Virus record (IMG/VR): IMGVR_UViG_3300035208_001037
Span: 1,232-65,231 of that record
Source of the DNA: a virus
Taxonomy: Duplodnaviria; Caudoviricetes
DNA length: 64,000 nucleotides
Strand: one strand, 5' to 3'
Positions 39,407 to 45,092 of the stretch are shown piece after piece. A program made the position numbers and the translations under genes. The notes beneath the pieces are model-generated. The model saw nothing but the letters and a program-made list of their open reading frames with translations. It was not told the origin of the DNA and made no database searches. Position 1 is the stretch's first letter. The number at the start of each line of letters is the position of its first letter.

Positions 39407-41053
39407 CTAATCCATTATAACTTTATATAATTCAATAACTTTACTACCGATTTTATCAGCTTTAAATTCATCTAAGTTGTCCGGTACTTTATGTAGTTTT
39501 TTATCAATTATATTTCCATCACTATCTACATTATATATAATTGATGGTTTACCACAAAACCAACTTTCGATAGTTGTTCTACCTAATAATATACCAGCTG
39601 TTTCATCACAGTCTTGTATGTATTTTTCTATGTTCCATGTTGGTTGGAAATATGTCACATGCTCTTGGCCGGACAACATTTCGTCCATATTAATACCATT
39701 ATTTTTACCAACTAAAACTAATTCAGCATCCCATGTTTTGGTTCGCTCTATTAAATCTTTTATGGTTTTTTCTCTAAGATAATCCATTGTTCCAACGAAT
39801 AATATTCGTTTTTTATCTGATTTCTTTTTTTGTACTGTCGTAAACCTTGTGTTATCAATTGGATTATAAATAACATCTATTATATCTTCAGAAATATTAA
39901 ATTTATCAATTAAAAATTGTTTAATTTCTGGCCGAATAGCTATATAACGTTTAATTCGTTCATCAATAATTGGGTGCTCTAGTTCAATAACTTCAGAGTG
40001 AATTGTTGATATTACTGGTATTTCTGGATATAATTGCATGATAAACTCAGTAATTGGTTTATGGCTTAAATGTAATACATCAAAATCAACTCTACTTATT
40101 GCATATAATGTACCATCAACCGATGGTACTTGACCAGTAGGTGTATTTAAAACCCATTTACCATCACCACGTTTATAACCCGGAGGTTCATTCAAATTGT
40201 ACATTTTAATCCCAAACGAAGAAGCTTTTTTAGCTAAATCACCACCAATTAAATTAGAACATATTGTTACATCACAACCTTGTTTAACTAATTGTTTTGC
40301 TAATTCATAAAAATGTATTTCCGAACCAGTATAACTATTAAAATTTAAACACCCGATAAGAACTTTTAATTTATCACCTTTTCGCAATACTTTAGGTATG
40401 TTTATAGGTAAATTTTCTTTATATTTTTCTGCAAATTGTATTCTATTAGCTTCCCAAACATCGTTAGTTTGACCTATAGAATAGTGATTAATTTTAATAT
40501 CGTAATGAACACCAACTTTAACACCATTAATATGATTTTTAAAACAAAAATCTATATCATAAAAATGGAATCCTTCAAAATCTTCACCAAAATTTTCTTT
40601 AAGTCTAGTTTTATTAACTGATAAAAAAACGCCATCAACAATTACTGTTTCATCTATTAAATTACCGATATGTTTACTATATGCTGATAACCAAGTTTTA
40701 CCTTCGTGTGTATGATAAACTTGACCATACATTTTTCTTCCATGTTCCCACCATTTACCAGATGTTGGCATTTCTTTACTACCAGCAACACCTAGAATAC
40801 CAAATTCTGGGTTACGTTTATAATGCTTAATTAGTTTATCACCCCAATTGTTTGTTTTAATTTCAATATCATCATGACAAAATACAACAATATCATATTT
40901 AGTTTCTGTTAAAAACTTATTATAAACCTTAGTTAACCCCTCACCATTATTTATATATTCAATAACTTCAGCTTTAGGTAAACCACAAGTTTTTTTAAGA
41001 TGTTCAATATGTTGAGGTTTATGTTCTCTTGTACAATATACTATACTTATCAT
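39407..41053 (-). CDS. Fused GT-A plus GT-B glycosyltransferase
   Basis: N-half VFCHDD...GILGVAG...FHFYDIDFC; C-half TGSEIHFYELAKQL...GRTTIESWFCGKP. Confidence 0.8.
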   Translation of the reverse strand: MISIVYCTREHKPQHIEHLKKTCGLPKAEVIEYINNGEGLTKVYNKFLTETKYDIVVFCHDDIEIKTNNWGDKLIKHYKRNPEFGILGVAGSKEMPTSGKWWEHGRKMYGQVYHTHEGKTWLSAYSKHIGNLIDETVIVDGVFLSVNKTRLKENFGEDFEGFHFYDIDFCFKNHINGVKVGVHYDIKINHYSIGQTNDVWEANRIQFAEKYKENLPINIPKVLRKGDKLKVLIGCLNFNSYTGSEIHFYELAKQLVKQGCDVTICSNLIGGDLAKKASSFGIKMYNLNEPPGYKRGDGKWVLNTPTGQVPSVDGTLYAISRVDFDVLHLSHKPITEFIMQLYPEIPVISTIHSEVIELEHPIIDERIKRYIAIRPEIKQFLIDKFNISEDIIDVIYNPIDNTRFTTVQKKKSDKKRILFVGTMDYLREKTIKDLIERTKTWDAELVLVGKNNGINMDEMLSGQEHVTYFQPTWNIEKYIQDCDETAGILLGRTTIESWFCGKPSIIYNVDSDGNIIDKKLHKVPDNLDEFKADKIGSKVIELYKVIMD

Positions 41054-42933: not shown

Positions 42934-44233
42934 TTATTTTTTAATAATTGATTTATACCAATCTCGTCTCTTTTCAGTTACTGCGTTAATACTATACGTA
43001 TCTTTAATGGTATTATTTAAGTTAATTGATAATTGTTTTACTAATTCTGGGTTCTCAATTAAATTTTTAATATATTGATACCATAATTTATGGTTTTTAT
43101 CACTTGGTATTAATAAACTATTACCGTTTGAATTAATTGCACCACCTTTTTCACGAGCATTTACTAAATCAATTTGATAAGGACCAAAATCTTGTGCTAT
43201 AATAGCTTTTTTATGGAACCCGGCTTCAATAACTTTTAATTGACTTTTTACTTTATTGAAAATGTGTTCAGATAATGGGGCTAATGAAACATCGAATAAA
43301 TTATAATTACTTGCGTAAGTACTAATTGGTTTAGTCCAAACACGTCTATACGGTTCATTTGACACATTAGAGTATTCATTTTTAGTAAATGATAATAAAT
43401 GTTCTTTATATTCTGGTGAAATGGTTGTGTAATTATCTGTAAATATTTGCTCATAATTATACCAAACACTTTCTTTTGGTTGAATAGGTCGTTGAGTTTT
43501 TTGACCTGTTTGTTCATCAATCGTTGTAATAAACCCACGTAAGTCAAATCCACATAATACAAATTGAACTTTATCTAATAACCCATCAGTTTTAAGTTTA
43601 CTAACAACACCATTTAAAATTTCTAAATCTTTTAAATGTGATGACCCACCTAACCAACCAATACGAAGTCGTTCAGATTGTTCTGGGTTTGGTATATATT
43701 GTTTTTCTTTTGGGTCAATAGCGTTAGGTAAAACAAAAGTATTTTTATTATATTTTTTAATTTCATTTGCAAATATATCTGTTGTTGTACAAACATAATC
43801 AGCTAACTGAAGATTATTTAATATTTTTTTATCTATACCACTTTGTTTAATTAATAAATAAGCTGGGTGATGTTGTCCCGGTGACCAATAATCATCTAAA
43901 TCCATAATGGTTGGAATACCTAATCTACGTAATCTAGGTATTGTACCTTCTTGTTTAACACCTTGGCTATCTAGATAATCACCCATTTTATCATAATCAC
44001 CAATAGTTCTATGAAAATGAATTAAATCATATTGTTTTAACCATTCATCATTATCAATTTGTGGTTCATAATCAATATCTATATGGAATTCATCACGATA
44101 TAGTTCTTCTAATGTGATATGTGGTTTTGTACTTCTAAAATAACCTAATTCAGCCAACCCCTGTACGGTCACTAGGTACTATTAGTACACTAATTTTACG
44201 ACCAACAGGGGTTGTTTTTTTAATATTCTCCAT
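42934..44233 (-). CDS. GT-B glycosyltransferase whose 5' end is split between two frames (44233-44153 and 44142-42934)
   Basis: Frame A MENIKKTTPVGRKISVLIVPSDRTGVG*; frame B continues YFRSTKPH...DLDDYW, RIGWLGGSSH.KD, KSQLKVIEAG. Confidence 0.8.
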
Positions 44234-44243
44234 ATTGTTTGTT

Positions 44244-44918
44244 TTATTTATTATATTTATCTATTATTTGTAATATTATATTTTTATCTTTTTTATAATC
44301 GTGTTCCCAAATTACTTCTATAATATATCCATTATTTTTTGCTAAGTAAAGTTTATTTTTATCATAATCCCAAATTTCTTTAGCTGTTTTATTTTTTTTT
44401 GTGTGAAAAAAAGTTTCACCATATTTTATTGGGTTACAATGCCAGTAATCGCCATTATATTCTATAATTAAATTAAATTTTGGTATGTATAAATCATAAA
44501 TTTTGGAACCTATTATTAAATTTGGTATACATTCAATATTTTTGCTTAATAAAAAAGAAATAAGTTCATTTTCTGCTTTAGACCTATTATAAGATTTTAA
44601 TTCACCATTTTTAATCCTTTCTTTCATTAAATTACTCATTTTAATTCTAACATTTTCCATTTTACCACTTTCCCATAAATCAATTTTTATTTTACGAAGT
44701 AACTCCCTGTTTTTTGGGTCATTCATTGAATTATCTACACCCATTGCTTTACCAACCCTATTTTTAGATATTTTTTCAATAGTTTCTTTTTTATGTTTTT
44801 TACCATAAAATGGGTTACCATTACCTTGTTGATTTATTAATGAACAAGATTTACATATATTTTTATTTTTTAAATTTCTTAAAGATAATATTTGGTTGAT
44901 GCTGATATTTCTATACAT
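44244..44918 (-). CDS. Free-standing NUMOD3 plus Vsr/DUF559-like endonuclease; natural start probably 45004 across a 1-nt frameshift
   Basis: GNGNPFYGKKHKKETIEKIS; YDLYIPKFNLIIEYNGDYWH; upstream frame MREENP...CNQC...KYYL* pairs with CKSC. Confidence 0.8.
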   Translation of the reverse strand: MYRNISINQILSLRNLKNKNICKSCSLINQQGNGNPFYGKKHKKETIEKISKNRVGKAMGVDNSMNDPKNRELLRKIKIDLWESGKMENVRIKMSNLMKERIKNGELKSYNRSKAENELISFLLSKNIECIPNLIIGSKIYDLYIPKFNLIIEYNGDYWHCNPIKYGETFFHTKKNKTAKEIWDYDKNKLYLAKNNGYIIEVIWEHDYKKDKNIILQIIDKYNK

Positions 44919-45064
44919 TTATAACATTGGTTACAAATATAATTTGTTACCCACATATTATTTATATTTACAAACGTACTATATAATGGATTTTCTTCTC
45001 TCATAAATATAAATATAATTTAAAAATCTAAAAACCCTACATCTGTTTTATCTTTATTAAAATA

Positions 45065-45092
45065 AAAAAAAGCTTACCGAAGTAAGCTTTTT
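45065..45092 (-). terminator. Rho-independent terminator
   Basis: AAAAAGCTTAC-TTCG-GTAAGCTTTTTTT on the minus strand. Confidence 0.85.

Follow-up and report, generated by a model that had tools for sequence, protein, structure and literature searches.

How a glycosyltransferase gene can be expressed when a stop codon and a change of frame separate its first codons from the rest is the question raised by a minus-strand locus in a 64,000-nucleotide (nt) stretch of DNA (hereafter, the window; 28% G+C), which is part of the 65-kb viral contig IMGVR_UViG_3300035208_001037 of IMG/VR. A leader open reading frame (ORF), whose ATG lies 10 nt past the stop codon of an endonuclease gene, ends there on GGC followed by TGA, ATTA and GGT, after which TAT TTT AGA AGT opens the body of the enzyme in the +1 frame relative to the leader. 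An earlier note on this DNA had described the junction in the same terms, and each of its statements on the leader, GGC, TGA, ATTA, GGT, TAT and the frames was re-derived from the letters of the window. Gene callers annotate just a 412-amino acid (aa) ORF starting at GTG 44172 (P0001, P0002); excision of the gap in silico yields a 429-aa glycosyltransferase with the sequence ...VPSDRTGVG-YFRSTKPH... From the comparison of alleles given below, the 10-nt gap is likely to be a recurrent coding gap that is carried by an endonuclease cassette and crossed by a short programmed translational hop.

The homologues of the enzyme are not interrupted at this site. Of the more than 7,000 relatives obtained by protein search, 120 were listed, and nearly all of these read M-x-K-I-K-V-L-V-V-P-S-D-R-T-G-V-(G/S)-(Y/K)-F-R-S without a break, much as the earlier note had anticipated with the pattern DRTGVG(Y/K)FRS, so that the window holds 10 extra bases between a Gly and a Tyr codon. 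Invariant residues flank the gap (G15 on one side, R20 and S21 on the other), and the homologues show neither length variation nor extra residues at its position. The sequence falls in a PHROG glycosyltransferase family (3e-41), with weak Pfam matches. A model of the uninterrupted homologue P0003, which is 80% identical (predicted local distance difference test score 80, predicted template modelling score 0.78), has Foldseek matches to MshA, GlgM, BshA and PimA (E-values down to 7e-13, with 1e-10 to 7e-13 for MshA, BshA and PimA); on this model the enzyme is a GT-B fold, GT4-like glycosyltransferase with two Rossmann-like domains, comprising an N-terminal beta1 strand, a Gly loop and the alpha1 helix. 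Given that modelled beta1 spans residues 4-9 and alpha1 begins at residue 16, the gap would split the beta1-loop-alpha1 motif and the annotated 412-aa ORF would be without a core strand.

Sequencing or assembly error, which the earlier note had listed among the alternatives and which would suit a lone metagenomic contig whose local sequence is rich in homopolymers, is hardly conceivable. An ENA assembly (L003, a 228-kb contig) is identical to the window over 7.2 kb except for one 1-nt indel at ~44879 (window 44879-44880 versus L003:2293), which falls within the endonuclease gene and reflects a polymorphism or else a slip in assembly. This second assembly has the 10 nt as well, and the gap is therefore not an assembly artefact; 46 other junction variants also argue against an error. 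An alternative genetic code was considered as well and is ruled out by codon counts: TAA, TAG and TGA serve as stops 58, 8 and 1 times in the genome, respectively, and Trp is encoded by TGG in all 206 cases, which indicates that the code is standard and TGA is a genuine stop.

Viral and metagenome collections were scanned with a degenerate DNA pattern (P-S-D-R-T-G-V-x followed by a stop), and the loci obtained were pooled with those fetched by protein identity; gap lengths were counted through the landing codon. We identified 47 different junctions with an interruption among uncultured phages related to this one, many of them on several contigs from different samples, with gaps of 5, 6, 7, 8, 9, 10, 11, 12, 13 or 15 nt (for example, AGU-UGAGC for 5 nt and GGU-UAA-GGC for 6 nt). 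The longest gap, 15 nt in L193:1259-1333 (-), TGAAAAAATTAAGGA, contains a second in-frame stop, TAA. The codon directly after the take-off codon is TGA in 28 junctions and TAA in 19; for TAG at this place, the pattern scan of the viral and metagenome collections gave 0 matches. All 47 junctions have GGY or AGY as the take-off codon, and the final codon of the gap is always RGN (GGT, GGC, GGA, AGT, AGC or AGA). The landing codon is never TCN (0/47), whereas in an unbiased sample of uninterrupted alleles TCN occupies this codon in 25 of 54 distinct ones (naive P ~2e-13, with the junctions taken as independent). The take-off and landing codons can be read by a single tRNA in 30 of the 47 junctions, the window pair being GGC to GGT. 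In each interrupted allele, the family consensus reappears once the gap is excised, so that one mechanism, re-pairing of the peptidyl-tRNA at the landing codon, would fit all the alleles.

These junctions also bear on conventional frameshifting or stop codon read-through as the explanation, under which a +1 slip on GGG-G in the window would give TG-LAELG-YFR, in-frame alleles would be read through, and the remaining alleles would require -1/+2 shifts. Such a slip is compatible with the GGGG run in the window, where the +1 frame is open from 44178, and with the presence of GGG at that Gly in 35 of the 47 interrupted alleles. The gaps, however, fall into all three frame classes (15 in frame, 13 requiring +1 and 19 requiring +2), and no one frameshift or read-through event can account for them; three different mechanisms at one site would be needed across the family. 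Furthermore, GGG is replaced by GGA in nine alleles and by GGC in three, the overlap between the two frames is as short as 5 nt in seven out-of-frame alleles, and the +2 class is without a slippery site. The resulting products would carry 1-5 additional residues in the most conserved loop, where the homologues are constant in length, and the constant RGN at the end of the gap would be left unexplained. We consider this explanation improbable.

Another possibility is that the leader terminates as a 27-aa peptide and that the enzyme is made separately, without beta1, by translational coupling or re-initiation at GTG 44172 or TTG 44157. Both of these codons are in the downstream frame of the window just ahead of the stop, and it is this ORF that the gene callers choose. 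Against such an arrangement, 38 of the 47 alleles contain no ATG, GTG or TTG that could start the downstream part, the N-terminal Rossmann domain of the enzyme would be devoid of core strand beta1 and of the invariant S-D-x-x-G loop, and there would be no reason for the leader to retain the glycosyltransferase's own N-terminal sequence. The production of two separate polypeptides thus appears very improbable.

The body of the gene is under purifying selection. A single exception, a contig with Ns, stands against 42 intact downstream ORFs among the 43 interrupted alleles with enough sequence, and for most pairs of glycosyltransferases of the same cassette type the ratio of nonsynonymous to synonymous divergence (dN/dS) is 0.05-0.13 at dS of ~0.4-2.4. 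The endonuclease genes of such alleles have diverged to dS of 0.3-1.7, also under purifying selection, which implies that the cassettes are old. In 19 of 41 alleles, the endonuclease is reduced to a remnant or gone, yet the gap and an intact glycosyltransferase gene are kept. With the glycosyltransferase under purifying selection, the proposed hop would have to be efficient enough to maintain the enzyme.

Selection is likewise the evidence by which a disabled gene has to be judged, that is, the possibility that the insertion is an endonuclease scar in a pseudogene and that the cassette persists by invading fresh alleles. Interrupted alleles are indeed scattered over the tree of glycosyltransferase bodies, with at least nine gains or losses forced, and near-identical filled and empty twins exist, so that some insertions must be recent. 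Nevertheless, it would be hard to reconcile a pseudogene with intact downstream ORFs in DNA of such low G+C content, in particular where the endonuclease itself has decayed or disappeared, with dN/dS of ~0.1, or with intact inteins in gap-bearing alleles. In addition, the leader motif PSDRTGV(G/S) is kept through AGY/TCN and CGN/AGR codon switches, scars would not always open with a stop and close with a matching codon, and no second copy of the glycosyltransferase is encoded in the 65-kb record. Thus, the disabled gene is a distinctly improbable alternative.

Seven interrupted alleles contain an in-frame insert that enlarges the ORF to 570-780 aa, and those inspected are intact inteins. These inteins, with LAGLIDADG-type endonuclease domains, are located at two conserved motifs of the glycosyltransferase, and all alleles that carry them are gap-bearing. 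One site follows RIGWLGGS (L007:628-2931, L012, L014, L017/L025, L116 and L207) and the other follows FNKMK (L008/L018), with C...HN followed by S as the intein boundaries in both cases. Selfish inserts of three kinds occur in the glycosyltransferase gene, a hotspot for such elements.

The interrupted alleles share a conserved RNA hairpin. In the window, it consists of 15 base pairs, pairing extends as far as the first base of the take-off codon, and the N-terminal extension of the leader corresponds to the codons for D-R-T-G-V-G in reverse complement. The duplex energy is -27.5 kcal/mol (z -8.3 versus shuffles), and the minimum free energy of the leader is -34.1 kcal/mol (z -3.9). The duplex amounts to -15.6 to -31.4 kcal/mol in 46/46 scorable interrupted alleles as opposed to -2.3 to -12.0 kcal/mol in the 54 uninterrupted ones (Mann-Whitney p 9e-18), and in none of these 54 was the 15-bp hairpin found. 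Covariation is apparent in an alignment of 42 alleles: six pairs are altered on both sides, and the pair at the Thr wobble position shows all four Watson-Crick combinations (A-U, U-A, G-C and C-G); the covariation score was reached by 0/500 shuffles, with no slid register coming close. The G-U pairs in the helix point to structure at the RNA level. The leader comprises 23-29 residues in 47/47 interrupted alleles, mostly 27-28, whereas this N-terminal segment has 17-22 residues in 106 of 111 uninterrupted homologues. The 5' arm of the hairpin accounts for the conservation of the extension, and any role of the nascent peptide as a signal in the exit tunnel is inseparable from that. Gly in T-G-V is encoded by GGG or GGA in 44/47 interrupted compared to 29/54 uninterrupted alleles; the resulting GGGG or GGAG resembles a Shine-Dalgarno element 2-3 nt ahead of the take-off codon and is inseparable from the constraint on the helix. 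A terminator-like match on the opposite strand, 44198-44215 (+), is the complement of the hairpin 5' arm beside an A-run in the leader and is probably not a real terminator.

This helix differs from the one suggested before. The pairing of CCUAGU with AUUAGG in the gap, proposed in the earlier note, lies outside the minimum-energy fold and is not conserved, and the gap is too short for its 5' portion to form a take-off stem-loop, the conserved helix being situated wholly upstream. The broader proposal made there, a short bypass element on an endonuclease cassette with a parallel in T4 gene 60 and mobA, is strongly supported by the comparison of alleles; the pairing at take-off is wrong, and the immunity role is putative. 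Another possibility is that the gap is lost at the level of the nucleic acid, either through RNA processing and ligation, for which the hairpin might in principle act as a signal, or because a subpopulation of the DNA is without the 10 nt. Nothing direct speaks for such removal; gaps of 5-15 nt are far shorter than any self-splicing intron, Rfam gave no match at the hairpin, and several independent assemblies of several alleles all retain the gap. We regard it as highly improbable.

Comparison with uninterrupted alleles delineates the cassette on which the gap resides. In a blastn alignment of the window with L262, the nearest uninterrupted allele for which DNA is available, homology extends over 45740-45060 and resumes at the landing GGT at 44145, with 914 nt in place of 94 nt; the terminator of the upstream 188-aa gene is the final feature before the cassette that is common to gap-less relatives. 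The insert encompasses the endonuclease gene, the new start with the N-terminal extension, replacement codons for the beginning of the glycosyltransferase, and the part of the gap that precedes the landing codon. In the twins L031 (filled) and L113, 1033 nt take the place of 146 nt and homology is back 3 nt before the resume codon. The comparison of L010 with L045 reveals a mini-cassette that lacks the endonuclease and is limited to a new start codon, an extension by 10 codons, a second, diverged version of codons 1-17 and the gap. The flanks are ~96% identical in the filled/empty twin pairs. An endonuclease gene or its remnant is located directly upstream in 27 of 41 interrupted alleles compared to 0/54 uninterrupted ones (Fisher p 9e-14), the co-occurrence that the earlier note had called for.

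The free-standing endonuclease reported in that note does adjoin the glycosyltransferase gene upstream, but the copy in the window is decaying: it has no N-terminal helix-turn-helix, and a 1-nt deletion at ~44879 puts the zinc-ribbon fragment out of frame. L003 has one more base at the deletion site and an intact endonuclease ORF of 253 aa. Full-length endonucleases of 291-305 aa combine a helix-turn-helix, a zinc ribbon, NUMOD3 and the nuclease domain, and the alignment contains a conserved D...EYNGDYWH block. The upstream ORF is intact in 14 relatives, and in 12 of them it overlaps the new glycosyltransferase start by 14-29 nt. A search of PDB sequences with the endonuclease produced no match. 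For an AlphaFold model of the full-length homologue L005, the top Foldseek match is the I-Bth0305I catalytic domain, 3r3p (template modelling score 0.74 on the target, E-value 1e-3), followed by Vsr (1cw0/1vsr); with scores that are borderline (E-values 1e-3 to 1e-2), the nuclease domain might be nearest to I-Bth0305I and Vsr.

Cassettes without a gap also exist. Four uninterrupted alleles have long N-termini, two of them with an endonuclease upstream; these two, L266 and L264, combine the endonuclease and a new N-terminus with no gap and no strong hairpin, and could be either ancestral to the gap-bearing cassette or derived from it by loss of the gap. Their endonuclease lies beside a gap-less target, which argues against a strict need for the gap in the putative immunity role that the earlier note had suggested. 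The endonuclease ORF of L266:217-2356 is full-length (295 aa) and that of L264:3-2212 is cut by the contig end. The helix is weak in L264, L266 and L267 (-7 to -10 kcal/mol) and reaches -14.8 kcal/mol in L265; weak helices in gap-less cassettes suggest, on these four alleles, that the helix is linked to the gap rather than to the cassette as such.

From the anatomy of the locus and its variants, we infer the following course of translation. The ribosome would read the 27-codon leader until GGC (Gly27) occupies the P site and UGA the A site; instead of termination taking place, the peptidyl-tRNA-Gly would release GGC, the mRNA would slip by 10 nt, the tRNA would re-pair at GGU (44145-44143), and decoding would restart at UAU to produce the 429-aa glycosyltransferase. 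The hairpin might stimulate this hop by re-zipping behind the ribosome at the mRNA exit, thus pulling the mRNA or biasing its movement forward, and the G-rich Shine-Dalgarno-like GGGG or GGAG ahead of the take-off codon may assist, as in prfB. The +1 frameshift site of prfB, which encodes release factor 2, is AGGGGGUAU-CUU-UGA, with a G-rich Shine-Dalgarno-like element 2-3 nt before the P-site codon. The sequence GGGGUN-GGC-UGA resembles it in the G-rich element upstream and in the UGA in the A site; unlike the one-base shift on a slippery codon in prfB, the movement here would cover 5-15 nt and end on a separate codon, and UAA is used besides UGA. As for its origin, a homing-endonuclease cassette has replaced the glycosyltransferase's own 5' end, with the gap as the 3' end of the cassette, possibly to the benefit of the endonuclease.

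Several observations weigh against this reading. Taken by itself, the window sequence also allows the +1 slip on GGG-G. At take-off, the 3' arm of the hairpin sits inside the ribosome, and the action of the hairpin is accordingly a model. The hairpin arms, the extension and the gap share one cassette, and their co-occurrence could partly reflect linkage; this is countered, on four alleles only, by the decay of the helix in gap-less cassettes. The cassette moves between alleles, so some of the low dN/dS may predate insertion. Finally, 17 of the 47 landing codons match the take-off codon at just two of the three positions (GGY to GGA, AGY to GGC, AGC to AGA, or GGY to AGC), and six of these 17 pairs permit a G-U pair at the first codon position. 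Among these pairs, landing on AGA is seen in L013 and L156, GGY to AGC in L034 and L240, and AGY to GGC in L175, L179, L192, L207, L254 and L130. The two-position pairs fit a scenario in which a take-off codon borne by the cassette meets a landing codon borne by the recipient after homing, and the alleles concerned are natural test cases for the minimal pairing at landing.

Beyond a hop as such, the cassette could be a minimal, portable and self-sufficient bypass module that requires no more than a 15-bp hairpin with its 3' arm ending in the take-off codon, a stop and a near-cognate codon 5-15 nt further on, with re-zipping of the hairpin at the mRNA exit of the ribosome as its motor. This wider proposal is put forward tentatively, and we are slightly more inclined to doubt it than to adopt it.

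The coding gap of T4 gene 60 sits within a MobA homing-endonuclease element (Manning and Atkins, bioRxiv 10.1101/2022.08.31.505936), and the resemblance to the present family extends to many details. Both have the order endonuclease, N-terminal extension, replacement host codons and gap, with the insert ending at or just after the landing codon; the take-off and landing codons match and are often Gly GGY, and a stop comes directly after take-off. Both show filled and empty twin genomes with repeated insertion at one codon, frequent decay or loss of the endonuclease with retention of the gap, and inteins in the same host gene. By contrast, the host gene in this family encodes a GT-B glycosyltransferase instead of a topoisomerase, the insertion is at the extreme 5' end so that the gene is not split in two, and the gaps of 5-15 nt, compared to 20-50 nt in the gene 60 family, leave no room inside for a take-off stem-loop or a Shine-Dalgarno sequence. 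A conserved upstream hairpin ends in the take-off codon in the glycosyltransferase alleles, whereas the 5' stem-loop of the gene 60 family is not conserved; the idea of exit-side pairing is discussed for gene 60, and the proposed re-zipping of the hairpin is in line with it. The endonuclease is also of a different kind, probably Vsr-like, with NUMOD3, as opposed to the HNH enzyme MobA, and no sequence homology between the two systems is detectable. Since the endonuclease is not an HNH MobA homologue, the cassette is an analogue of the MobA element and not a member of that group.

Other short hops offer closer parallels in gap length. In the terminase gene of the Streptomyces phage phiHau3, 10-nt inserts follow UUA, and in E. 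coli a bypass junction peptide was detected with mass spectrometry (Antonov et al., RNA Biol 2023, PMC10732093). A gap of ~10 nt in a phage gene and a first codon that is slow to decode are common to both cases, and a 5' stem-loop together with a Shine-Dalgarno-like element has been proposed as stimulators there. In phiHau3, however, the slow codon is the rare sense codon UUA, which is tied to host development, a regulatory switch was proposed, and no endonuclease cassette is involved; the variants there number about three genes, compared to dozens with covariation here. Laboratory hops of +5, +6 and 9 nt over a stop or a hungry codon were described by Weiss et al. 1987, as cited in PMC10732093 and bioRxiv 10.1101/2022.08.31.505936. 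According to these later accounts, they involve frame-independent re-pairing of the peptidyl-tRNA at a matching codon a few nucleotides downstream when the A-site codon is slow, and the 5-nt and 6-nt alleles of the present family have the same geometry. As cited, the laboratory hops were low-level, unprogrammed and synthetic, in contrast to the natural, conserved, hairpin-linked site in these phages.

With respect to the endonuclease, I-Bth0305I and Vsr-like (EDxHD) enzymes are free-standing or intein-associated phage homing endonucleases (PDB 3r3p; Dassa et al. 2009, PMC2677866). The fold of the nuclease domain has its best structural match in I-Bth0305I, which is borderline at an E-value of 1e-3 and 23% identity. 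Unlike I-Bth0305I, the cassette enzyme possesses additional helix-turn-helix, zinc-ribbon and NUMOD3 modules, and its cleavage activity is putative. A literature search found no description of a bypass element in a glycosyltransferase gene.

Features of the locus and their positions in the window (minus strand; numbering of the whole stretch).
Feature	Position	Strand	Basis or remark
Leader ORF, 27 codons, peptide MENIKKTTPVGRKISVLIVPSDRTGVG	44233-44153	-	ATG at 44233-44231; final codons ACA GGG GTT GGC, then TGA
Leader codons 1-10	within 44153..44233	-	N-terminal extension specific to the cassette
Leader codons 11-27	within 44153..44233	-	Second encoding of glycosyltransferase beta-strand 1 and PSDRTGVG loop
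Hairpin 5' arm CAACCCCUGUUGGUC	44200..44214	-	Inside the N-terminal extension; duplex energy, covariation
Hairpin 3' arm GACCGUACAGGGGUUG	44155..44170	-	Codons D22-V26 and first base of the take-off codon
Take-off codon GGC (Gly27)	44153..44155	-	Final sense codon ahead of TGA
Coding gap, 10 nt	44143..44152	-	TGA 44152-44150, ATTA, landing GGT 44145-44143; missing in nearly all 120 listed homologues
GT-B (GT4-like) glycosyltransferase body, 402 codons	42934..44142	-	Resume codon TAT (44142-44140) to stop; homologues
Mobile cassette, ~914 nt	44146..45059	-	blastn against L262, nearest uninterrupted allele with DNA
Endonuclease ORF, 224 aa, NUMOD3 and putative Vsr-like PD-(D/E)xK domain, motif IEYNGDYWHCNP	44244..44918	-	Pfam NUMOD3, PHROG homing/HNH families, alignment
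Endonuclease N-terminal zinc-ribbon fragment	44882..45004	-	tblastn with full-length homologues: two frames joining at ~44880
Intrinsic terminator of the 188-aa upstream gene	45067..45092	-	Terminator-like hairpin and T run

The glycosyltransferase gene is the final gene of a large glycosylation island that occupies the 26-44 kb region of the window. Just downstream of it, a fused GT-A/GT-B protein of 548 aa is encoded at 39407-41053 (-), with a dUTPase and an HD-like gene in between; the synteny of the glycosyltransferase, a ~200-aa gene, the 188-aa gene and the dUTPase is kept in distant relatives. No tRNA genes that might help hopping were found within the window, and a scan of the cassette for promoters gave no more matches than shuffled sequences. 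The terminase large subunit TerL is ~30% identical to terminases of T4-like cyanophage and Flavobacterium myophage origin. Among 50,697 phage records, the closest tblastn match of the glycosyltransferase is 32% identical and belongs to an uncultured huge phage. The DNA search for relatives gave short endonuclease-like matches only, and no cultured phage with the gap element was found among the phage records or by the DNA search.

Natural efficient bypassing has so far been represented mainly by T4 gene 60 and its topoisomerase homologues, in addition to yeast mitochondrial inserts and the phiHau3 candidate. The glycosyltransferase family would be an independent and much simpler case, with another gene, another endonuclease, gaps of 5-15 nt and dozens of variants. 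These natural variants already form a mutational series in which gap length, stop identity, landing match and helix sequence vary, and the series makes it possible to test what drives the forward movement, how much pairing is needed at landing, and whether the stop is essential. Gene callers mis-annotate such genes as N-terminally truncated, or as two ORFs in the in-frame cases. On this reading of the junctions, homing endonucleases can occupy the most conserved motif of a gene by supplying their own recoding signal. If the more tentative proposal of a portable module is also true, these phages would provide a natural, covariation-backed case of exit-side pairing driving bypassing and a second, independently evolved route by which homing endonucleases enter essential motifs without loss of the gene.

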